Shown here: positions 1,939 through 15,281 of the stretch, piece after piece
Position numbering within the stretch: position 1 is the stretch's first letter
How the letters are laid out: each line of letters opens with the position of its first letter
Assembly (NCBI GenBank): GCA_000004985.1
Contig: GG738973.1
Length of the DNA stretch: 15,337 nucleotides
Reading direction: 5' to 3' (one strand)
Origin: Naegleria gruberi
Lineage: Eukaryota
Program-made: the position numbers and the translations under genes
The notes under the pieces: model-generated
Seen by the model: only the letters and a program-made list of their open reading frames with translations
Told to the model about the DNA's origin: nothing
Database searches by the model: none

Positions 1939-4900
1939 NNNNNNNNNNNNNNNNNNNNNNNNNNNNNNNNNNNNNNNNNNNNNNNNNNNNNNNNNNNNNN
2001 NNNNNNNNNNNNNNNNNNNNNNNNNNNNNNNNNNNNNNNNNNNNNNNNNNNNNNNNNNNNNNNNNNNNNNNNNNNNNNNNNNNNNNNNNNNNNNNNNNNN
2101 NNNNNNNNNNNNNNNNNNNNNNNNNNNNNNNNNNNNNNNNNNNNNNNNNNNNNNNNNNNNNNNNNNNNNNNNNNNNNNNNNNNNNNNNNNNNNNNNNNNN
2201 NNNNNNNNNNNNNNNNNNNNNNNNNNNNNNNNNNNNNNNNNNNNNNNNNNNNNNNNNNNNNNNNNNNNNNNNNNNNNNNNNNNNNNNNNNNNNNNNNNNN
2301 NNNNNNNNNNNNNNNNNNNNNNNNNNNNNNNNNNNNNNNNNNNNNNNNNNNNNNNNNNNNNNNNNNNNNNNNNNNNNNNNNNNNNNNNNNNNNNNNNNNN
2401 NNNNNNNNNNNNNNNNNNNNNNNNNNNNNNNNNNNNNNNNNNNNNNNNNNNNNNNNNNNNNNNNNNNNNNNNNNNNNNNNNNNNNNNNNNNNNNNNNNNN
2501 NNNNNNNNNNNNNNNNNNNNNNNNNNNNNNNNNNNNNNNNNNNNNNNNNNNNNNNNNNNNNNNNNNNNNNNNNNNNNNNNNNNNNNNNNNNNNNNNNNNN
2601 NNNNNNNNNNNNNNNNNNNNNNNNNNNNNNNNNNNNNNNNNNNNNNNNNNNNNNNNNNNNNNNNNNNNNNNNNNNNNNNNNNNNNNNNNNNNNNNNNNNN
2701 NNNNNNNNNNNNNNNNNNNNNNNNNNNNNNNNNNNNNNNNNNNNNNNNNNNNNNNNNNNNNNNNNNNNNNNNNNNNNNNNNNNNNNNNNNNNNNNNNNNN
2801 NNNNNNNNNNNNNNNNNNNNNNNNNNNNNNNNNNNNNNNNNNNNNNNNNNNNNNNNNNNNNNNNNNNNNNNNNNNNNNNNNNNNNNNNNNNNNNNNNNNN
2901 NNNNNNNNNNNNNNNNNNNNNNNNNNNNNNNNNNNNNNNNNNNNNNNNNNNNNNNNNNNNNNNNNNNNNNNNNNNNNNNNNNNNNNNNNNNNNNNNNNNN
3001 NNNNNNNNNNNNNNNNNNNNNNNNNNNNNNNNNNNNNNNNNNNNNNNNNNNNNNNNNNNNNNNNNNNNNNNNNNNNNNNNNNNNNNNNNNNNNNNNNNNN
3101 NNNNNNNNNNNNNNNNNNNNNNNNNNNNNNNNNNNNNNNNNNNNNNNNNNNNNNNNNNNNNNNNNNNNNNNNNNNNNNNNNNNNNNNNNNNNNNNNNNNN
3201 NNNNNNNNNNNNNNNNNNNNNNNNNNNNNNNNNNNNNNNNNNNNNNNNNNNNNNNNNNNNNNNNNNNNNNNNNNNNNNNNNNNNNNNNNNNNNNNNNNNN
3301 NNNNNNNNNNNNNNNNNNNNNNNNNNNNNNNNNNNNNNNNNNNNNNNNNNNNNNNNNNNNNNNNNNNNNNNNNNNNNNNNNNNNNNNNNNNNNNNNNNNN
3401 NNNNNNNNNNNNNNNNNNNNNNNNNNNNNNNNNNNNNNNNNNNNNNNNNNNNNNNNNNNNNNNNNNNNNNNNNNNNNNNNNNNNNNNNNNNNNNNNNNNN
3501 NNNNNNNNNNNNNNNNNNNNNNNNNNNNNNNNNNNNNNNNNNNNNNNNNNNNNNNNNNNNNNNNNNNNNNNNNNNNNNNNNNNNNNNNNNNNNNNNNNNN
3601 NNNNNNNNNNNNNNNNNNNNNNNNNNNNNNNNNNNNNNNNNNNNNNNNNNNNNNNNNNNNNNNNNNNNNNNNNNNNNNNNNNNNNNNNNNNNNNNNNNNN
3701 NNNNNNNNNNNNNNNNNNNNNNNNNNNNNNNNNNNNNNNNNNNNNNNNNNNNNNNNNNNNNNNNNNNNNNNNNNNNNNNNNNNNNNNNNNNNNNNNNNNN
3801 NNNNNNNNNNNNNNNNNNNNNNNNNNNNNNNNNNNNNNNNNNNNNNNNNNNNNNNNNNNNNNNNNNNNNNNNNNNNNNNNNNNNNNNNNNNNNNNNNNNN
3901 NNNNNNNNNNNNNNNNNNNNNNNNNNNNNNNNNNNNNNNNNNNNNNNNNNNNNNNNNNNNNNNNNNNNNNNNNNNNNNNNNNNNNNNNNNNNNNNNNNNN
4001 NNNNNNNNNNNNNNNNNNNNNNNNNNNNNNNNNNNNNNNNNNNNNNNNNNNNNNNNNNNNNNNNNNNNNNNNNNNNNNNNNNNNNNNNNNNNNNNNNNNN
4101 NNNNNNNNNNNNNNNNNNNNNNNNNNNNNNNNNNNNNNNNNNNNNNNNNNNNNNNNNNNNNNNNNNNNNNNNNNNNNNNNNNNNNNNNNNNNNNNNNNNN
4201 NNNNNNNNNNNNNNNNNNNNNNNNNNNNNNNNNNNNNNNNNNNNNNNNNNNNNNNNNNNNNNNNNNNNNNNNNNNNNNNNNNNNNNNNNNNNNNNNNNNN
4301 NNNNNNNNNNNNNNNNNNNNNNNNNNNNNNNNNNNNNNNNNNNNNNNNNNNNNNNNNNNNNNNNNNNNNNNNNNNNNNNNNNNNNNNNNNNNNNNNNNNN
4401 NNNNNNNNNNNNNNNNNNNNNNNNNNNNNNNNNNNNNNNNNNNNNNNNNNNNNNNNNNNNNNNNNNNNNNNNNNNNNNNNNNNNNNNNNNNNNNNNNNNN
4501 NNNNNNNNNNNNNNNNNNNNNNNNNNNNNNNNNNNNNNNNNNNNNNNNNNNNNNNNNNNNNNNNNNNNNNNNNNNNNNNNNNNNNNNNNNNNNNNNNNNN
4601 NNNNNNNNNNNNNNNNNNNNNNNNNNNNNNNNNNNNNNNNNNNNNNNNNNNNNNNNNNNNNNNNNNNNNNNNNNNNNNNNNNNNNNNNNNNNNNNNNNNN
4701 NNNNNNNNNNNNNNNNNNNNNNNNNNNNNNNNNNNNNNNNNNNNNNNNNNNNNNNNNNNNNNNNNNNNNNNNNNNNNNNNNNNNNNNNNNNNNNNNNNNN
4801 NNNNNNNNNNNNNNNNNNNNNNNNNNNNNNNNNNNNNNNNNNNNNNNNNNNNNNNNNNNNNNNNNNNNNNNNNNNNNNNNNNNNNNNNNNNNNNNNNNNN

Positions 4901-6386
4901 NNNNNNNNNNNNNNNNNNNNNNNNNNNNNNNNNNNNNNNNNNNNNNNNNNNNNNNNNNNNNNNNNNNNNNNNNNNNNNNNNNNNNNNNNNNNNNNNNNNN
5001 NNNNNNNNNNNNNNNNNNNNNNNNNNNNNNNNNNNNNNNNNNNNNNNNNNNNNNNNNNNNNNNNNNNNNNNNNNNNNNNNNNNNNNNNNNNNNNNNNNNN
5101 NNNNNNNNNNNNNNNNNNNNNNNNNNNNNNNNNNNNNNNNNNNNNNNNNNNNNNNNNNNNNNNNNNNNNNNNNNNNNNNNNNNNNNNNNNNNNNNNNNNN
5201 NNNNNNNNNNNNNNNNNNNNNNNNNNNNNNNNNNNNNNNNNNNNNNNNNNNNNNNNNNNNNNNNNNNNNNNNNNNNNNNNNNNNNNNNNNNNNNNNNNNN
5301 NNNNNNNNNNNNNNNNNNNNNNNNNNNNNNNNNNNNNNNNNNNNNNNNNNNNNNNNNNNNNNNNNNNNNNNNNNNNNNNNNNNNNNNNNNNNNNNNNNNN
5401 NNNNNNNNNNNNNNNNNNNNNNNNNNNNNNNNNNNNNNNNNNNNNNNNNNNNNNNNNNNNNNNNNNNNNNNNNNNNNNNNNNNNNNNNNNNNNNNNNNNN
5501 NNNNNNNNNNNNNNNNNNNNNNNNNNNNNNNNNNNNNNNNNNNNNNNNNNNNNNNNNNNNNNNNNNNNNNNNNNNNNNNNNNNNNNNNNNNNNNNNNNNN
5601 NNNNNNNNNNNNNNNNNNNNNNNNNNNNNNNNNNNNNNNNNNNNNNNNNNNNNNNNNNNNNNNNNNNNNNNNNNNNNNNNNNNNNNNNNNNNNNNNNNNN
5701 NNNNNNNNNNNNNNNNNNNNNNNNNNNNNNNNNNNNNNNNNNNNNNNNNNNNNNNNNNNNNNNNNNNNNNNNNNNNNNNNNNNNNNNNNNNNNNNNNNNN
5801 NNNNNNNNNNNNNNNNNNNNNNNNNNNNNNNNNNNNNNNNNNNNNNNNNNNNNNNNNNNNNNNNNNNNNNNNNNNNNNNNNNNNNNNNNNNNNNNNNNNN
5901 NNNNNNNNNNNNNNNNNNNNNNNNNNNNNNNNNNNNNNNNNNNNNNNNNNNNNNNNNNNNNNNNNNNNNNNNNNNNNNNNNNNNNNNNNNNNNNNNNNNN
6001 NNNNNNNNNNNNNNNNNNNNNNNNNNNNNNNNNNNNNNNNNNNNNNNNNNNNNNNNNNNNNNNNNNNNNNNNNNNNNNNNNNNNNNNNNNNNNNNNNNNN
6101 NNNNNNNNNNNNNNNNNNNNNNNNNNNNNNNNNNNNNNNNNNNNNNNNNNNNNNNNNNNNNNNNNNNNNNNNNNNNNNNNNNNNNNNNNNNNNNNNNNNN
6201 NNNNNNNNNNNNNNNNNNNNNNNNNNNNNNNNNNNNNNNNNNNNNNNNNNNNNNNNNNNNNNNNNNNNNNNNNNNNNNNNNNNNNNNNNNNNNNNNNNNN
6301 NNNNNNNNNNNNNNNNNNNNNNNNNNNNNNNNNNNNNNNNNNNNNNNNNNNNNNNNNNNNNNNNNNNNNNNNNNNNNNNNNNNNNN
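1939..6386. other. Run of 4,448 N (scaffold gap or hard-masked sequence).
   Basis: Uninterrupted n characters. The ORFs in the provided track that span it are X-translation artefacts. Confidence 0.99.
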
Positions 6387-7229: not shown

Positions 7230-7316
7230 ATGAAAATTATAACAAAACAGCCTAGAAATATTTGCCTCGTTCTCCTCCTTCTCATTGTTGCTCTCGTAGT
7301 AGCTCCATCATACCAA
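7230..7316 (+). other. Predicted signal peptide of the secreted protein, about 26-29 aa.
   Basis: A basic n-region (KQPR) is followed by a 16-residue hydrophobic h-region (NICLVLLLLIVALVVA) and a small polar c-region (PSYQ). The exact cleavage site is not determinable by eye. Confidence 0.55.
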
Positions 7317-7862
7317 TTGTCTCTCTCACCAGAACTTCGTGCCACTTGTTTGGCTGCCATTCAAAGCTATGATAAGTGTACCTTCTATACACAATGTTTG
7401 GAAAAGATCAAGCCTTGTGGTCCTAATGGTTATGCTCTTGGATATGGTTACAAGTATTGTTCTAAATTCTTCTCTGATGTTAATAGTGGAGCTTACAAGA
7501 GTGAATATGCTCAAAAGTGGGTTTCTTCAACTGGTCACTGTTTGCAAAAGTTCTTGATGCAAAATGTTGTTGAAAAGTTGTTGTCTAATACTGGATCTGA
7601 ATGGAATTGTGAACGTATCATTGATGCTAGCTTTAATTCCCATCCTGGATGTTATACTGATTCCATCTCACCTATTGATGGTCAAAAGTATAGTATTTGT
7701 AAGCTTAGAAATGTTTTTGATGTCAAGACTGTTTTGATGACTGTCGATGCTAAGGACTTGTTGACTGCTAGATCTATGAAGCAAATTGTTGGTGTCTTGA
7801 AGAATTGTATGTCTGATGTCTTGTCTTTGGATGAAGTCAATGAATTGAATGATTACCTTTAA
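7230..7862 (+). CDS. Secreted cysteine-rich protein, 210 aa, with a signal peptide and stanniocalcin-like cysteine spacing.
   Basis: ATG at 7230 to TAA at 7860-7862, uninterrupted. Strong yeast-like codon bias (ttg, aag, gct, tct, ggt, aga) with no CTG codons. The N-terminus MKIITKQPR-NICLVLLLLIVALVVA-PSYQ has the n-region, h-region and c-region of a signal peptide. The mature part has 10 Cys with spacings 9,5,6,13,26,22,13,15,35. Human STC1 is 8,4,5,8,23,15,13,6,34. Shared local motifs include RATCL/VVRCL, QCLEK/ACLEN, YCSKFF/ICKSFL, ERIIDA/QRMIAE and GCYTD/ECYSK. The STC1 sequence is recalled from memory. Confidence 0.8.
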   Translation: MKIITKQPRNICLVLLLLIVALVVAPSYQLSLSPELRATCLAAIQSYDKCTFYTQCLEKIKPCGPNGYALGYGYKYCSKFFSDVNSGAYKSEYAQKWVSSTGHCLQKFLMQNVVEKLLSNTGSEWNCERIIDASFNSHPGCYTDSISPIDGQKYSICKLRNVFDVKTVLMTVDAKDLLTARSMKQIVGVLKNCMSDVLSLDEVNELNDYL

Positions 7863-8081
7863 ATTATTTTCCAATTAATTAATTATATTAAATAAATATT
7901 AATTTATTACTACATTTAATACTACGTAGTATGAGAATCATGATGTTATTGAACAAGAACAATTAAGAAGTAGTAACAATTAATTGGTGATGGTGATAGA
8001 AAATTCTCTCTTCCACGTAAGTGCCAGCTAATACAATCCAAAAATTATCATCACAACAATAAAAATTAATTATAAAAAAAT

Positions 8082-8618
8082 ATGAGTGCTTCTACTTCAT
8101 CACATTCAACTGCTCCAATTAAAACCTTCTCATCTGAACATCAGGATATGATCCATGATGCTCAAGCTGATTACTACGGAAAGAGATTGGCCACTTGTTC
8201 AAGTGATGCTACAATTAGAATTTTTGATTTGGCTCCAAGTAATTCTGAGGAACCAAAGTTGGTGGATACTCTCATCGGTCATGAAGGTCCAGTCTGGCAA
8301 GTTAGTTGGGCTCATCCACAATTTGGATCGATAATTGCCAGTTGTTCCTATGATCATAGAGTTATTATTTGGAAGGAAAATCAACAAACTCACAAATTTA
8401 CTAAAGTTTTTGAATATAGACTTGAGAGTAGCGTAAATTCAATCTCTTGGGCTCCTCACGAACATGGACTTCATTTGGCTAGTGCAAGCTCCGACTCACA
8501 AATTACATTCTTCTCCTACGATGAACAAAGCAATAATTGGAAGGTTTCTAATATTAGAGATGCTCACAAAACTGGATGTAACTCTGTTTGTTGGGCTCCT
8601 GCATCACACACTGGTGCT
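8082..8618 (+). CDS. SEC13: SEC13 orthologue (WD40 protein of the COPII coat and Nup84/Nup107 complex). Only the N-terminal 179 codons are present; the rest is lost in the N run.
   Basis: ATG at 8082 in an A-rich context (aaaaaaatATGagt). The translation is [50 protein letters not shown]...[36 protein letters not shown]...[22 protein letters not shown]...GCNSVCWAP. It matches the conserved SEC13 blocks [51 protein letters not shown] and GCN.V.WAP, as recalled for the yeast and human proteins. The ORF is open to the gap edge at 8618. Confidence 0.92.
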
Positions 8619-11600
8619 NNNNNNNNNNNNNNNNNNNNNNNNNNNNNNNNNNNNNNNNNNNNNNNNNNNNNNNNNNNNNNNNNNNNNNNNNNNNNNNNNN
8701 NNNNNNNNNNNNNNNNNNNNNNNNNNNNNNNNNNNNNNNNNNNNNNNNNNNNNNNNNNNNNNNNNNNNNNNNNNNNNNNNNNNNNNNNNNNNNNNNNNNN
8801 NNNNNNNNNNNNNNNNNNNNNNNNNNNNNNNNNNNNNNNNNNNNNNNNNNNNNNNNNNNNNNNNNNNNNNNNNNNNNNNNNNNNNNNNNNNNNNNNNNNN
8901 NNNNNNNNNNNNNNNNNNNNNNNNNNNNNNNNNNNNNNNNNNNNNNNNNNNNNNNNNNNNNNNNNNNNNNNNNNNNNNNNNNNNNNNNNNNNNNNNNNNN
9001 NNNNNNNNNNNNNNNNNNNNNNNNNNNNNNNNNNNNNNNNNNNNNNNNNNNNNNNNNNNNNNNNNNNNNNNNNNNNNNNNNNNNNNNNNNNNNNNNNNNN
9101 NNNNNNNNNNNNNNNNNNNNNNNNNNNNNNNNNNNNNNNNNNNNNNNNNNNNNNNNNNNNNNNNNNNNNNNNNNNNNNNNNNNNNNNNNNNNNNNNNNNN
9201 NNNNNNNNNNNNNNNNNNNNNNNNNNNNNNNNNNNNNNNNNNNNNNNNNNNNNNNNNNNNNNNNNNNNNNNNNNNNNNNNNNNNNNNNNNNNNNNNNNNN
9301 NNNNNNNNNNNNNNNNNNNNNNNNNNNNNNNNNNNNNNNNNNNNNNNNNNNNNNNNNNNNNNNNNNNNNNNNNNNNNNNNNNNNNNNNNNNNNNNNNNNN
9401 NNNNNNNNNNNNNNNNNNNNNNNNNNNNNNNNNNNNNNNNNNNNNNNNNNNNNNNNNNNNNNNNNNNNNNNNNNNNNNNNNNNNNNNNNNNNNNNNNNNN
9501 NNNNNNNNNNNNNNNNNNNNNNNNNNNNNNNNNNNNNNNNNNNNNNNNNNNNNNNNNNNNNNNNNNNNNNNNNNNNNNNNNNNNNNNNNNNNNNNNNNNN
9601 NNNNNNNNNNNNNNNNNNNNNNNNNNNNNNNNNNNNNNNNNNNNNNNNNNNNNNNNNNNNNNNNNNNNNNNNNNNNNNNNNNNNNNNNNNNNNNNNNNNN
9701 NNNNNNNNNNNNNNNNNNNNNNNNNNNNNNNNNNNNNNNNNNNNNNNNNNNNNNNNNNNNNNNNNNNNNNNNNNNNNNNNNNNNNNNNNNNNNNNNNNNN
9801 NNNNNNNNNNNNNNNNNNNNNNNNNNNNNNNNNNNNNNNNNNNNNNNNNNNNNNNNNNNNNNNNNNNNNNNNNNNNNNNNNNNNNNNNNNNNNNNNNNNN
9901 NNNNNNNNNNNNNNNNNNNNNNNNNNNNNNNNNNNNNNNNNNNNNNNNNNNNNNNNNNNNNNNNNNNNNNNNNNNNNNNNNNNNNNNNNNNNNNNNNNNN
10001 NNNNNNNNNNNNNNNNNNNNNNNNNNNNNNNNNNNNNNNNNNNNNNNNNNNNNNNNNNNNNNNNNNNNNNNNNNNNNNNNNNNNNNNNNNNNNNNNNNNN
10101 NNNNNNNNNNNNNNNNNNNNNNNNNNNNNNNNNNNNNNNNNNNNNNNNNNNNNNNNNNNNNNNNNNNNNNNNNNNNNNNNNNNNNNNNNNNNNNNNNNNN
10201 NNNNNNNNNNNNNNNNNNNNNNNNNNNNNNNNNNNNNNNNNNNNNNNNNNNNNNNNNNNNNNNNNNNNNNNNNNNNNNNNNNNNNNNNNNNNNNNNNNNN
10301 NNNNNNNNNNNNNNNNNNNNNNNNNNNNNNNNNNNNNNNNNNNNNNNNNNNNNNNNNNNNNNNNNNNNNNNNNNNNNNNNNNNNNNNNNNNNNNNNNNNN
10401 NNNNNNNNNNNNNNNNNNNNNNNNNNNNNNNNNNNNNNNNNNNNNNNNNNNNNNNNNNNNNNNNNNNNNNNNNNNNNNNNNNNNNNNNNNNNNNNNNNNN
10501 NNNNNNNNNNNNNNNNNNNNNNNNNNNNNNNNNNNNNNNNNNNNNNNNNNNNNNNNNNNNNNNNNNNNNNNNNNNNNNNNNNNNNNNNNNNNNNNNNNNN
10601 NNNNNNNNNNNNNNNNNNNNNNNNNNNNNNNNNNNNNNNNNNNNNNNNNNNNNNNNNNNNNNNNNNNNNNNNNNNNNNNNNNNNNNNNNNNNNNNNNNNN
10701 NNNNNNNNNNNNNNNNNNNNNNNNNNNNNNNNNNNNNNNNNNNNNNNNNNNNNNNNNNNNNNNNNNNNNNNNNNNNNNNNNNNNNNNNNNNNNNNNNNNN
10801 NNNNNNNNNNNNNNNNNNNNNNNNNNNNNNNNNNNNNNNNNNNNNNNNNNNNNNNNNNNNNNNNNNNNNNNNNNNNNNNNNNNNNNNNNNNNNNNNNNNN
10901 NNNNNNNNNNNNNNNNNNNNNNNNNNNNNNNNNNNNNNNNNNNNNNNNNNNNNNNNNNNNNNNNNNNNNNNNNNNNNNNNNNNNNNNNNNNNNNNNNNNN
11001 NNNNNNNNNNNNNNNNNNNNNNNNNNNNNNNNNNNNNNNNNNNNNNNNNNNNNNNNNNNNNNNNNNNNNNNNNNNNNNNNNNNNNNNNNNNNNNNNNNNN
11101 NNNNNNNNNNNNNNNNNNNNNNNNNNNNNNNNNNNNNNNNNNNNNNNNNNNNNNNNNNNNNNNNNNNNNNNNNNNNNNNNNNNNNNNNNNNNNNNNNNNN
11201 NNNNNNNNNNNNNNNNNNNNNNNNNNNNNNNNNNNNNNNNNNNNNNNNNNNNNNNNNNNNNNNNNNNNNNNNNNNNNNNNNNNNNNNNNNNNNNNNNNNN
11301 NNNNNNNNNNNNNNNNNNNNNNNNNNNNNNNNNNNNNNNNNNNNNNNNNNNNNNNNNNNNNNNNNNNNNNNNNNNNNNNNNNNNNNNNNNNNNNNNNNNN
11401 NNNNNNNNNNNNNNNNNNNNNNNNNNNNNNNNNNNNNNNNNNNNNNNNNNNNNNNNNNNNNNNNNNNNNNNNNNNNNNNNNNNNNNNNNNNNNNNNNNNN
11501 NNNNNNNNNNNNNNNNNNNNNNNNNNNNNNNNNNNNNNNNNNNNNNNNNNNNNNNNNNNNNNNNNNNNNNNNNNNNNNNNNNNNNNNNNNNNNNNNNNNN

Positions 11601-12832
11601 NNNNNNNNNNNNNNNNNNNNNNNNNNNNNNNNNNNNNNNNNNNNNNNNNNNNNNNNNNNNNNNNNNNNNNNNNNNNNNNNNNNNNNNNNNNNNNNNNNNN
11701 NNNNNNNNNNNNNNNNNNNNNNNNNNNNNNNNNNNNNNNNNNNNNNNNNNNNNNNNNNNNNNNNNNNNNNNNNNNNNNNNNNNNNNNNNNNNNNNNNNNN
11801 NNNNNNNNNNNNNNNNNNNNNNNNNNNNNNNNNNNNNNNNNNNNNNNNNNNNNNNNNNNNNNNNNNNNNNNNNNNNNNNNNNNNNNNNNNNNNNNNNNNN
11901 NNNNNNNNNNNNNNNNNNNNNNNNNNNNNNNNNNNNNNNNNNNNNNNNNNNNNNNNNNNNNNNNNNNNNNNNNNNNNNNNNNNNNNNNNNNNNNNNNNNN
12001 NNNNNNNNNNNNNNNNNNNNNNNNNNNNNNNNNNNNNNNNNNNNNNNNNNNNNNNNNNNNNNNNNNNNNNNNNNNNNNNNNNNNNNNNNNNNNNNNNNNN
12101 NNNNNNNNNNNNNNNNNNNNNNNNNNNNNNNNNNNNNNNNNNNNNNNNNNNNNNNNNNNNNNNNNNNNNNNNNNNNNNNNNNNNNNNNNNNNNNNNNNNN
12201 NNNNNNNNNNNNNNNNNNNNNNNNNNNNNNNNNNNNNNNNNNNNNNNNNNNNNNNNNNNNNNNNNNNNNNNNNNNNNNNNNNNNNNNNNNNNNNNNNNNN
12301 NNNNNNNNNNNNNNNNNNNNNNNNNNNNNNNNNNNNNNNNNNNNNNNNNNNNNNNNNNNNNNNNNNNNNNNNNNNNNNNNNNNNNNNNNNNNNNNNNNNN
12401 NNNNNNNNNNNNNNNNNNNNNNNNNNNNNNNNNNNNNNNNNNNNNNNNNNNNNNNNNNNNNNNNNNNNNNNNNNNNNNNNNNNNNNNNNNNNNNNNNNNN
12501 NNNNNNNNNNNNNNNNNNNNNNNNNNNNNNNNNNNNNNNNNNNNNNNNNNNNNNNNNNNNNNNNNNNNNNNNNNNNNNNNNNNNNNNNNNNNNNNNNNNN
12601 NNNNNNNNNNNNNNNNNNNNNNNNNNNNNNNNNNNNNNNNNNNNNNNNNNNNNNNNNNNNNNNNNNNNNNNNNNNNNNNNNNNNNNNNNNNNNNNNNNNN
12701 NNNNNNNNNNNNNNNNNNNNNNNNNNNNNNNNNNNNNNNNNNNNNNNNNNNNNNNNNNNNNNNNNNNNNNNNNNNNNNNNNNNNNNNNNNNNNNNNNNNN
12801 NNNNNNNNNNNNNNNNNNNNNNNNNNNNNNNN
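8619..12832. other. Run of 4,214 N (scaffold gap or hard-masked sequence). It swallows the 3' ~0.4 kb of SEC13 plus ~3.8 kb of unknown sequence.
   Basis: Uninterrupted n characters. The ORFs in the track that span it are artefacts. Confidence 0.99.
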
Positions 12833-12853: not shown

Positions 12854-13369
12854 TTATTCTTCATCGTACAAGTGAGAGAATTCAATAACATCATCCAAAT
12901 CATCCACATCAACCATTCTCTTCTGATAAATACCATCTTTTGGATGATTTCTATGCCACTTTTTATGATTTCTTCCTTCAGATCTGAATCTTCCATTTCT
13001 AGTCTGTTTTTTGAAAGCTCTTTCTTCATGATGAATTGCATTCCATTCCACCTTATTAAATCCCTTCTCAGTATTAAACTTGTGAAAGGAATTCAAAAGA
13101 ACAGGTTCTGCTCTCTTTATATTCGCTCTCTCTGCAACCCAATCACATCGTTGATGATTTTCCTTATACTGACGATCATAGAGTTCCAATTCAGCAGTAT
13201 AATTCCTCTCCAATCGATGAGCTCCGGCAGAATATTCCAAATTACTTGATGATTTTTGTTTGTATTTGGAGCAACCTCCGTGATAGGATGTATCACTAGT
13301 CTTTGCTACACGAGGTGTTTGCCATTTAACTTTACCACTTCTAGCCAATGAGCCGTGAATAACTGCCAT
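12854..13369 (-). CDS. 171-aa protein with a ribosomal protein eS30 (RPS30/FAU)-like N-terminal motif fused to a non-ribosomal basic/acidic extension.
   Basis: Minus-strand ATG at 13369-13367 and TAA at 12856-12854, uninterrupted. The 5' leader is A-rich (aaacaaagaacaatATG). The N-terminus is MAVIHGSLARSGKVKWQTPRVAK. The canonical eS30 is (M)[22 protein letters not shown] in yeast and [21 protein letters not shown] in human FAU, so ~17 of 20 residues are identical. From residue ~24 onward (TSDTSYHGGCSKYKQ...RNGRFRSEGRNHKKWHRNHPKDGIYQKRMVDVDDLDDVIEFSHLYDEE) there is no resemblance to eS30. The extension keeps the AGA/TTG/AAG codon bias and a 148-codon open frame, so it is coding and not an intron. 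Confidence 0.7.
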   Translation of the reverse strand: MAVIHGSLARSGKVKWQTPRVAKTSDTSYHGGCSKYKQKSSSNLEYSAGAHRLERNYTAELELYDRQYKENHQRCDWVAERANIKRAEPVLLNSFHKFNTEKGFNKVEWNAIHHEERAFKKQTRNGRFRSEGRNHKKWHRNHPKDGIYQKRMVDVDDLDDVIEFSHLYDEE

Positions 13370-13560
13370 ATTGTTCTTTGTTTAATTGTTGTTTGTTTTT
13401 TTTGGGGTTAAAAATAGAAGAATTCACTTGAAAAAATATGAAATTTGCTTTTGTTCTATTTTTATAATATTGTAAGGAGTTTTATGTAACCTCATTATTC
13501 GGATAGGTTGTTGCATTGATATTTCAGCAGGAAATATGTTAAGGTATTGATGTTTCCAAT

Positions 13561-13908
13561 GTGGACAGTTCTTTTGGTGTTGAATATGCTTTAAACGACG
13601 ACACCTTCTCATCAAACAATGTAGAAGAAAGAGCTCAATTCATCAAGACACTCACTGCCAAATTGTATTGCATCCAAACAATCACTTTTGAGAAAAAGGA
13701 ATACTCCCTTGTGGCAATACCTAAAATATCATGTAGCAAAGTGATAAACAAGGGAACAAAAGAGGATTTTGAAAGGTTTATGGACCACGAGTTCATTACC
13801 AATTCACTGCTGAATGATTTGAAACGATATTTCAAGAGTTATGAATTTGAATTAACAGACAAAGCGAGAATTGACAATCAAAAGAGAAAAGAGTACAAAA
13901 GAGAATGA
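13561..13908 (+). CDS. Hypothetical protein (~115 aa) whose start is unresolved.
   Basis: A 121-codon open frame runs from the TAA at 13540-13542 to the TGA at 13906-13908. The sequence is charged and protein-like with AGA/AAG/TTG bias (…NDDTFSSNNVEERAQFIKTLTAKLYCIQTITFEKKEYSLVAIPKISCSKVINKGTKEDFERFMDHEFITNSLLNDLKRYFKSYEFELTDKARIDNQKRKEYKRE). No in-frame ATG occurs before 13783. An ATG at 13559 sits in the +1 frame and runs only 11 codons. This suggests a 1-nt indel or an unseen upstream exon. Confidence 0.35.
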   Translation: MDSSFGVEYALNDDTFSSNNVEERAQFIKTLTAKLYCIQTITFEKKEYSLVAIPKISCSKVINKGTKEDFERFMDHEFITNSLLNDLKRYFKSYEFELTDKARIDNQKRKEYKRE

Positions 13909-14201: not shown

Positions 14202-15281
14202 TTATTTTCTTGTTTTCAGTCTCAATTCCAGAGGGAGAGAATTGACATCAACCTTTGAACAGCCACCAACATGAATTGTTTGCAACTTTGAACATGCTTT
14301 GGCAATAGTAACAAGTCCCTTATTAGTAATATCACAAAATCTTACATCCAATTCTTCCAAATTAGTTAAAGAACTCAACTCGGTTACCCCCTTGTCATGA
14401 ATTTGATCCTCTCCTAAATTCATTACATAGAGCTTTCTCAAAGATTTCACATTTCCAATCATGGCGCAACCAGCATCACCAAAAGCTGTGTTTTGTTTCA
14501 AATCCAAAATTTCCAGCTTTGATAAATTAGCCAATTTTCCAAGAGAATTTAATGAGTTACCAATGATTGAATCAGCATAAAGATGTTTAAGATTGGAGAA
14601 AGTACTGATCGTATTGAAAACGTCTTCGCTCATTGTCGCCCTACTCAGATTCAAAACTTGAATAGTATGATTATTTTTGAGGCCTAAGAATTCCTCTCCA
14701 GATATTGCATAACCCTCAAGTTTCAGAGTGTGTAATGTCTGTATTGTGTTAAGTGCTGTAAAGAAAATATATGCATTTGCCTTCTTCTCGTGTCCAAAAT
14801 GGTTTCTATCAAATTTACAATCCAAAACTTGAAGATTTTTCCAATTAGCAACACAATCTCCAACGTCACTAATGAAATTACGACTTTCAATTCTAATAAT
14901 TTCCAAATTGGGCGTGTGAGTAACAAACTCGCTAGTTATGAATGTAGTCGGTCCACAATATTCCAAATGTTTCAAAGCATAATTGGTTTCTGCAAAAACT
15001 TTTGCAAAATTCTCATCCAAATAGTAAGATCTTGAATTTGTCATCTTTGTCCTGAGAACACTTCTCCCAAAGCAAATTTTCTCCAGATTGTTAAATTTAC
15101 GTACGGCCAATGTTATTAAAGACTCAAATGTTTCAATTCCTTCAATATTGAGCTCGGTTATTTTGGTACAAAGAGAATTGTCAGTTGTAAAGAGTTCTAA
15201 TTTCTCAACAAGATTGTTCTCAATTTCATTTTCATCAGCTAATTGGATAGTTCTCTTAGGGAATGAAAAAAGNGTAATGGC
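14202..15281 (-). CDS. Cysteine-containing leucine-rich-repeat protein (F-box/LRR, AMN1/GRR1-like LRR class) with an unresolved N-terminus.
   Basis: The minus-strand frame is open from the TAA at 15284-15282 to the TAA at 14204-14202. Successive ~24-26-residue LxxLxLxxCxxIT/SDxG(L) repeats are present, for example NLSKLEILDLKQNTAFGDAGCAMIG, LRKLYVMNLGEDQIHDKGVTEL, LTNLEELDVRFCDITNKGLVTIAKACSKLQTIHVGGCSKV. The first in-frame ATG is at 15044-15042. LRR-like sequence (…LVEKLELFTTDNSLCTKITELNIEGIETFESLITLAVRKFNNLEKI…) continues upstream with no ATG, and the track's 15110 start is a TTG. An ambiguous base at 15273 lies in this stretch. Codon bias is consistent with the other genes. Confidence 0.8.
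   Translation of the reverse strand, partial: AIXLFSFPKRTIQLADENEIENNLVEKLELFTTDNSLCTKITELNIEGIETFESLITLAVRKFNNLEKICFGRSVLRTKMTNSRSYYLDENFAKVFAETNYALKHLEYCGPTTFITSEFVTHTPNLEIIRIESRNFISDVGDCVANWKNLQVLDCKFDRNHFGHEKKANAYIFFTALNTIQTLHTLKLEGYAISGEEFLGLKNNHTIQVLNLSRATMSEDVFNTISTFSNLKHLYADSIIGNSLNSLGKLANLSKLEILDLKQNTAFGDAGCAMIGNVKSLRKLYVMNLGEDQIHDKGVTELSSLTNLEELDVRFCDITNKGLVTIAKACSKLQTIHVGGCSKVDVNSLPLELRLKTRK

Follow-up and report, generated by a model that had tools for sequence, protein, structure and literature searches.

An uncharacterised paralogue of ribosomal protein eS30 with a conserved C-terminal module in Naegleria gruberi and its relatives

In yeast, several assembly factors are ribosomal-like proteins that hold the place of a ribosomal protein, namely Rlp24 for eL24, Mrt4 for uL10, Imp3 for uS4 and Rlp7 for uL30. 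Rlp24 consists of an eL24-like N-domain and an extension that recruits a release factor, and factors of the Rlp24/Mrt4 type are ancient, single-copy and conserved across eukaryotes. We know of no organism with a placeholder for eS30, a small-subunit protein specific to eukaryotes, and a search of the searchable literature found no eS30 paralogue, placeholder or alternative form described. In solved ribosomes, eS30 occupies the 40S shoulder between h16 and h18; its N-terminus reaches as far as the decoding centre of the A site, and the messenger RNA (mRNA) channel is lined by basic residues close to its C-terminus (PMC8354635). Residue 3 of mature eS30, a histidine (His76 of FAU), contacts the decoding centre and codon-anticodon region in mammalian ribosomes (PMC5119991). 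Here we describe the gene NAEGRDRAFT_54652 of Naegleria gruberi, located in a stretch of 15,337 nucleotides (nt) of contig GG738973.1 (assembly GCA_000004985.1) that was analysed as a whole and is referred to as the window. The protein has a head derived from eS30, followed by an extension unlike any part of it. Very probably, and this holds for the description as a whole, NAEGRDRAFT_54652 is a genuine intronless gene of a dispersed family that is restricted to Naegleria and Willaertia and originated by duplication of an eS30 gene.

The open reading frame (ORF) lies on the minus strand, with its ATG at 13367-13369 and its TAA stop at 12854-12856, and its product is 100% identical to the public N. 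gruberi entry (UniProt D2V6F2, XP_002680305.1), which is annotated as 'predicted protein'. A first-pass annotation of the window had recognised the N-terminal motif of eS30 in this ORF and named a search with the Pfam profile Ribosomal_S30 (PF04758) as a check. The profile does match residues 4-25 above its gathering cutoff (32.2 bits against a cutoff of 27, E 1.2e-07), and it matched all nine family members that were found first. While the homology is thus borne out, its extent had been drawn too narrowly, with an end at residue 23. When the family was compared by hhalign with an alignment of 22 canonical eS30 sequences (97.7% probability, E 2.5e-12, 38 columns), residues 2-39 of the ORF paired with residues 2-39 of 66 in eS30, including 'GGCSKYK' against 'TGRAKKR'. 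Past residue 39, hhalign yielded no eS30 alignment, and the canonical YNRRF... end is absent. The family profile run against all PDB sequences matched eS30 chains only, with some 36-50 positions aligned. The core of the head in the family, with G12, T18 and P19 invariant and V21 present in 14 of 15 members, coincides with the canonical core G-K-V..Q-T-P-K-V, in which G, Q, T and P never vary and V hardly does. On the strength of these profile comparisons we regard the head as true eS30 homology. The first-pass annotation had also considered that the resemblance might be a feature of a known unrelated family; instead, the full-length homologues form an undescribed family whose head is eS30-homologous. 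H5 is the counterpart of the decoding-centre histidine, which is invariant in 22 of 22 canonical eS30 sequences; in the family this column holds histidine in one of 15 members, NAEGRDRAFT_54652 alone. The mean pairwise identity of the head is 0.54 (this and all further identity figures of this kind refer to the 15-sequence family alignment), and several paralogues (P0133, P0134 and P0135) have a visibly degenerate head.

The first-pass annotation had further described a non-eS30 extension of 148 residues. The extension proved genuine and is conserved in four species, but since eS30 homology runs to about residue 39, the part predicted to be lineage-specific comprises ~130 residues. It consists of two conserved motifs set between more variable segments (Table 1). 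The family consensus of motif 1 is NS(F/Y)HK(F/Y)N(T/S)xxGxx(R/K)xE, with N99 and E108 invariant and G103 nearly so across the 15 aligned members; K97 is invariant in the first nine members and replaced by N in two later ones. Motif 2, with the consensus NHKKWHRNHPKDGFYQxR, is the most conserved element of the family, and N134, H135, K136, K137, W138, R140, N141, H142 and R151 are the same in 15/15 members. The metagenomic contig L011, which encodes a close relative of NAEGRDRAFT_80950, one of the paralogues, served as reference for the ratio of nonsynonymous to synonymous substitution rates (dN/dS). The ratio comes to 0.25 in the extension, 0.36 in the head and 0.28 overall, at a dS of 0.58, which indicates purifying selection on both head and extension. 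Note that the 635-nt contig carrying the family sequence P0142 is metagenomic and not a transcript.

The protein is basic, with an isoelectric point (pI) of 9.35, and its net charge is +7 in the head, +9 in residues 87-152 and -9 in the last 19 residues. AlphaFold2 confidence is low (mean predicted local distance difference test, pLDDT, of 55.9 for the full protein and 65.4 for the C-module alone), and a single long helix is predicted at about residues 101-127 with pLDDT values of 76-87 in that block. A largely unstructured prediction together with a basic pI is as expected for a segment that would fold on RNA. No Pfam match was found for the extension in any member, nor a significant match among PDB sequences. 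Three candidate relationships were set aside. A likeness of 'KKWHRN' to the N-terminus of eL29 was dropped, as eL29 is absent among the nine PDB matches at E<=10. The stretch WHRNHP-KDGFYQxRxVF resembles the C-terminal hairpin of zinc-free bacterial bL32 (HRRHHMTKDGFYRGRQLF); the likeness is not significant, with an E value of 0.12 in hmmsearch against PDB, an hhalign probability of 77% over 19 columns with a partner chosen post hoc, and no Pfam L32p match. Outside the motif there is no similarity to bL32, which belongs to the bacterial large subunit. The 4,104-residue match P0138 was discarded as compositional, with no aligned stretch.

Contrary to the first-pass description of a single fusion protein, NAEGRDRAFT_54652 belongs to a dispersed, fast-evolving multigene family. 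N. gruberi has at least six members (NAEGRDRAFT_54652, 80950, 65282, 75501, 75033 and 67609) on separate scaffolds, and N. lovaniensis at least five (C9374_009951, 004537, 011131, 001053 and 005381) on separate contigs; further full-length relatives are FDP41_006432 of N. fowleri, ABK040_002574 of Willaertia magna and proteins of a few environmental contigs. Identity among paralogues is 34-73%, and between the proteins of N. gruberi and N. fowleri it is 48%. An exhaustive hmmsearch of 1.84 billion representative proteins with the C-module alone returned 15 proteins at E <= 1e-3, and the eS30-like head is present in every intact full-length protein among them. Because all of these carry the head, head and C-module form a fixed pair, and the family is confined to the Naegleria/Willaertia lineage of amoeboflagellates. 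No paper was found that links Naegleria with eS30, RPS30 or S30 or names the gene identifiers of the family, and no Naegleria ribosome structure was found; the protein identifiers were not found in the searchable part of the text of the supplements to PMC9035749 and PMC11964265.

Two observations concern individual copies. Two N. gruberi scaffolds carry a record of the identical 171-residue protein (EFC35957.1 and EFC47561.1), which suggests that the assembly contains a haplotig or a duplicate of very recent origin. The copy of W. magna in GCA_041937235.1 (L010, 2914-3329) runs co-linear with the Naegleria proteins; its degenerate head is broken by an in-frame TGA at 2992-2994, the reading frame shifts at an A-run (~3200) ahead of the NHQKWHRNHPKDGFYQKR motif, and the annotated 80-residue model spans the defect by an 'intron'. 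This copy is a pseudogene or an assembly error.

Table 1 Features of NAEGRDRAFT_54652 and of the surrounding window, in window coordinates
Feature	Coordinates	Strand	Basis or remark
Complete single-exon ORF, 171 residues plus TAA stop	12854-13369	minus	NAEGRDRAFT_54652 / D2V6F2 / XP_002680305.1
eS30-homologous head, residues 2-39 (AVIHGSLARSGKVKWQTPRVAKTSDTSYHGGCSKYKQK)	13253-13366	minus	hhalign of the family against canonical eS30; PDB profile matches
Core Pfam Ribosomal_S30 match, residues 4-25, includes H5	13295-13360	minus	Profile positions 2-23 of 58
Residues 40-55 (SSSNLEYSAGAHRLER), semi-conserved 'S..N..Y.SGAHR'	13205-13252	minus	Mean pairwise identity 0.44; no detectable eS30 likeness
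Variable linker, residues 56-89	13103-13204	minus	Mean pairwise identity 0.11; many insertions and deletions among paralogues
Conserved motif 1, residues 91-108 (LLNSFHKFNTEKGFNKVE)	13046-13099	minus	Mean pairwise identity 0.50
Variable basic segment, residues 109-131, predicted long helix	12977-13045	minus	Mean pairwise identity 0.15; AlphaFold2
Conserved motif 2, residues 134-151 (NHKKWHRNHPKDGIYQKR), His/Lys/Trp-rich	12917-12970	minus	Mean pairwise identity 0.83
Acidic C-terminal tail, residues 153-171 (VDVDDLDDVIEFSHLYDEE), net charge -9	12857-12913	minus	Longer paralogues only
5' leader/promoter-proximal region, 47% A (coding strand)	13370-13449	minus	Intergenic region shared with the divergent ORF at 13561 (plus)
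Sec13-like WD40 protein, N-terminal part, interrupted by the 4.2-kb N run	8082-8618	plus	Pfam WD40, 60.9 bits
115-residue ORF, divergent from the eS30-like gene over a ~190-nt intergenic region	13561-13908	plus	No Pfam match
210-residue ORF, Cys-rich, with hydrophobic signal-peptide-like N-terminus	7230-7862	plus	No Pfam match
Leucine-rich-repeat (LRR) protein	14202-15110	minus	Pfam LRR_4 and LRR_6

How does this architecture compare with the described systems? The first ~38 residues are homologous to eS30 from the core GSLAR.GKVK.QTP.V to the start of 'GRAKKR', the stretch that in eS30 extends from the decoding centre into the cleft of h16 and h18 of 18S rRNA, and the initiator methionine stands directly ahead of the motif, as in non-holozoan eS30. 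The differences concern length (171 residues with the C-terminal extension against 55-70 in eS30, or 59-70 in the canonical sequences compared), the replacement of the YNRRF... third by the extension, the number of copies (at least six divergent paralogues per genome against one or two near-identical copies of eS30), the lack of a conserved decoding histidine and a codon usage unlike that of an abundant protein. Although the eS30 motif is present, we do not class NAEGRDRAFT_54652 as eS30 proper, because the Pfam match takes in positions 2-23 of the 58 only, the protein greatly exceeds eS30 in size, and at least six paralogues at 34-73% identity are not the highly conserved, near-identical copies of a core ribosomal protein. 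Like the Rlp24/Mrt4 type of assembly factor, the family retains the segment by which a ribosomal protein docks on rRNA, with a C-terminal extension that is new or takes the place of the old end. Coexistence with the canonical protein, another trait of these factors, is seen for the family in Willaertia only. It differs in being multi-copy, fast-evolving and limited to one amoeboflagellate lineage, and its binding to pre-40S particles is putative. With the FUBI-eS30 precursor FAU it shares that eS30 forms part of a larger polypeptide. However, the partner in FAU is N-terminal, ubiquitin-like and cleaved off, leaving a complete eS30, whereas the addition described here is C-terminal, has neither a ubiquitin fold nor an evident cleavage site and replaces part of eS30. 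A bulky addition to eS30, if not removed, interferes with late 40S maturation (PMC8354635). The first-pass annotation rightly saw an architecture distinct from both canonical eS30 and FAU, and the same layout recurs in four species and many paralogues. Hibernation factors of the Stm1/SERBP1 class are, like the family proteins, small, basic and largely disordered, and the extension would lie at the mRNA entry channel if the head docks. They show no sequence similarity to the family and bind complete ribosomes in trans, without an anchor derived from a ribosomal protein. Naegleria does have dormant cysts.

High expression, which the first-pass annotation had read from the A-rich leader and the codon usage, is not indicated by either feature. 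The G+C content at third codon positions (GC3) is 0.27, compared with 0.27-0.30 in the neighbouring Sec13-like and LRR genes, the codons AAC (0/11), GAC (0/10) and ATC (0/4) are not used at all, and the 80 nt upstream of the ORF contain 47% A, exactly as does the leader of the Sec13-like gene (47% A). Codon usage and leader are typical of the neighbouring genes and give no pointer to expression at the level of a ribosomal protein. In W. magna, the published transcriptome and proteome (PMC7285305, Tables S1 and S2) contain a separate gene 4854, annotated as 40S ribosomal protein S30; mass spectrometry detected its product in two samples, with five unique peptides and a coverage of 38%. Its best match in the nr database is a diatom ribosomal protein S30, and neighbouring entries mostly match N. 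gruberi (PMC7285305). A canonical-type S30 coexists with a family copy in the sister genus. Because the copies have diverged, the histidine is kept in one of them, several heads are degenerate, codon usage is ordinary and Willaertia has a separate S30, it is quite probable that the family represents an extra paralogue and not the sole eS30.

The explanation that we favour overall, with a probability of roughly 0.6, is an eS30-derived paralogue family whose head docks at the eS30 site; the docking mechanism itself, proposed from sequence, is tentative. The retained head would dock on 18S rRNA at the eS30 site of the 40S or pre-40S particle, and this would be possible only on small-subunit particles without a resident eS30. 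Because the site is free only on such particles, the protein would either stand in for eS30 as a subunit, perhaps only at certain stages, or hold its place on pre-40S in the manner of Rlp24 for eL24 or Mrt4 for uL10. Since the extension starts where eS30 normally lines the mRNA channel, the conserved basic motifs of the new module would be placed at the entry to that channel and could there bind to mRNA or rRNA, or block or modulate mRNA entry. A bolder version, which we consider rather improbable, sees the proteins as a family of alternative eS30 subunits, each anchored by its head at h16/h18, with linkers of differing length and the His/Lys-rich motif, in some cases with the acidic tail, reaching into the mRNA entry channel or A-site region. 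The outcome would be small subunits that are specialised, or reversibly silenced in hibernation, for life as amoeba, flagellate or cyst, and, if this were true, a translational regulator would be built into the position of a ribosomal protein. In the extreme form, Naegleria would have lost the canonical eS30 and the family would be its sole eS30.

A more trivial origin of the ORF would leave only the first ~25-40 codons as a true eS30 exon, the rest being intron read-through with the second exon hidden in an N run, or would make the gene a decaying pseudogene. The ORF stop does lie only 21 nt away from the 4.2-kb N run 8619-12832, and one Willaertia copy looks decayed. However, at least 15 proteins of four species keep the extension with its invariant motifs, its dN/dS is 0.25, and among 20,000 composition-preserving shuffles of the ORF not one lacked a stop codon. 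When canonical eS30, in full length and as C-terminal halves, was used as tblastn query, no canonical second exon was found in the readable window, where the sole match was the ORF's own 5' end (13369-13241), and no canonical eS30 exon was found within +-6 kb of the gap-free N. fowleri orthologue. The latter is a single uninterrupted ORF with a convergent gene beginning ~140 nt past its stop. Because no canonical exon was found by tblastn and the extension is conserved, a read-through intron is excluded. The frame is unspliced, just as the first-pass annotation had maintained, and the artefact is already effectively refuted. Several points weigh against a docking, extra paralogue. One group concerns the canonical protein. 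The product of W. magna gene 4854 has a mass of 10.2 kDa, above the ~7 kDa typical of eS30, and is identified by its annotation (PMC7285305). That this protein is best matched by a diatom and not by N. gruberi suggests that the N. gruberi annotation holds no canonical eS30 model, the short gene being either unannotated or absent. Canonical eS30 was sought by word-indexed searches with a Leishmania eS30 query (verified against PDB 5t2a) and with a profile of discoban-like environmental eS30s, and no Naegleria canonical eS30 appeared among the best 120 of 291 and the best 120 of 1,589 matches. The contigs of the candidates P0081, P0123 and P0147 gave no sign of Naegleria, and ten multi-member clusters among the matches are from stramenopiles and dinoflagellates, not Naegleria. 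The remaining points concern the docking: ribosome association and localisation are putative; the most conserved element is the C-terminal motif and not the head (0.83 against 0.54); the key activity may thus reside in the new module, and the eS30 site need not be involved; and six divergent copies per genome would be unusual for an assembly placeholder.

In principle, the points on the canonical protein could mean that the family is Naegleria's actual eS30, the short canonical gene having been lost and the extended copies serving as structural 40S protein. The absence of a Naegleria canonical eS30 from the listed matches and the diatom affinity of the Willaertia protein speak in its favour, as does the head of NAEGRDRAFT_54652, which is the best preserved in N. 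gruberi, histidine included. Yet Willaertia possesses both the canonical-type S30 seen by mass spectrometry and a family member, core ribosomal proteins do not normally occur as at least six paralogues with identities as low as 34%, nor do the N. gruberi and N. fowleri proteins share more than 48% identity, and the C-terminal third that lines the mRNA channel in eS30 is missing, while codon usage is ordinary. Genes as short as 60 codons are often overlooked in annotation, and the searches for canonical eS30 were not exhaustive. We consider the loss of a separate eS30 very improbable. The points on docking lead in another direction, to a head put to another use and no longer seated at the eS30 site. 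The proteins would then be small, basic, largely disordered and lineage-specific, for example nucleolar, RNA-binding or specific to a stage such as the cyst, with their essential activity in the NHKKWHRNHPKDGFYQxR module and the head reduced to a generic basic segment for RNA binding or import. The much higher conservation of the C-terminal motif favours such a co-option of the head to some degree, and so do the degenerate heads of P0133, P0134 and P0135, the loss of the decoding-centre histidine in most members, the multi-copy, fast-evolving nature of the family and a codon usage unlike that of an abundant ribosomal protein. On the other hand, the head is still under purifying selection (dN/dS 0.36), it retains the residues that make up the canonical eS30 core, the module never occurs without it in intact genes, and 38 alignable residues of a segment that is embedded in rRNA are most simply explained by retained rRNA binding. 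We therefore consider co-option unlikely, though a more serious contender than the loss of canonical eS30, and prefer an extra paralogue whose head would dock at the eS30 site.

The window has ~34% G+C where readable; N runs at 1939-6386 and 8619-12832 leave ~57% of it unreadable. The LRR ORF among the neighbouring genes was called with a TTG start (bacterial code), and its true eukaryotic start is probably elsewhere. Further observations relate to eS30 genes in other organisms. The FUBI-eS30 fusion has been described as holozoan (PMC8354635). In apparently non-holozoan eukaryotes, the C-terminal half of ubiquitin is fused directly to canonical eS30 (P0066 and P0191), the exon-like ORFs P0218, P0220, P0087, P0181 and P0207 show this fusion as well, and a cluster related to these fusions includes the chrysophyte Spumella vulgaris. 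ENA contig ctg1432 (L008) carries three identical canonical eS30 genes in 2.7 kb (8001-8195, 9773-9967 and 10513-10707), two of them adjacent and the first set apart by other called genes; a further copy lies on a second contig (L009). In the 'S30/FUBI' protein of Anaeramoeba flamelloides (P0158), the eS30 head is tandemly duplicated within one 93-residue model, possibly a gene-model artefact.

What emerges is a real, uncharacterised ribosomal-protein-derived paralogue with a proposed mechanism, whose relatives are at present annotated only as 'predicted/hypothetical protein'. If the proteins are not ribosome-bound, a fragment of a ribosomal protein has been recycled into a new basic protein family. 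If they are ribosome-bound, they would make ribosome heterogeneity or built-in hibernation tractable in an organism that passes through three life stages, and, as N. fowleri is a pathogen, a ribosome component confined to this lineage would also be an interesting target. With the docking half of eS30 kept and the half at the mRNA channel exchanged for a conserved module, the family would amount to a natural experiment in how the point of mRNA entry on the 40S subunit can be remodelled.

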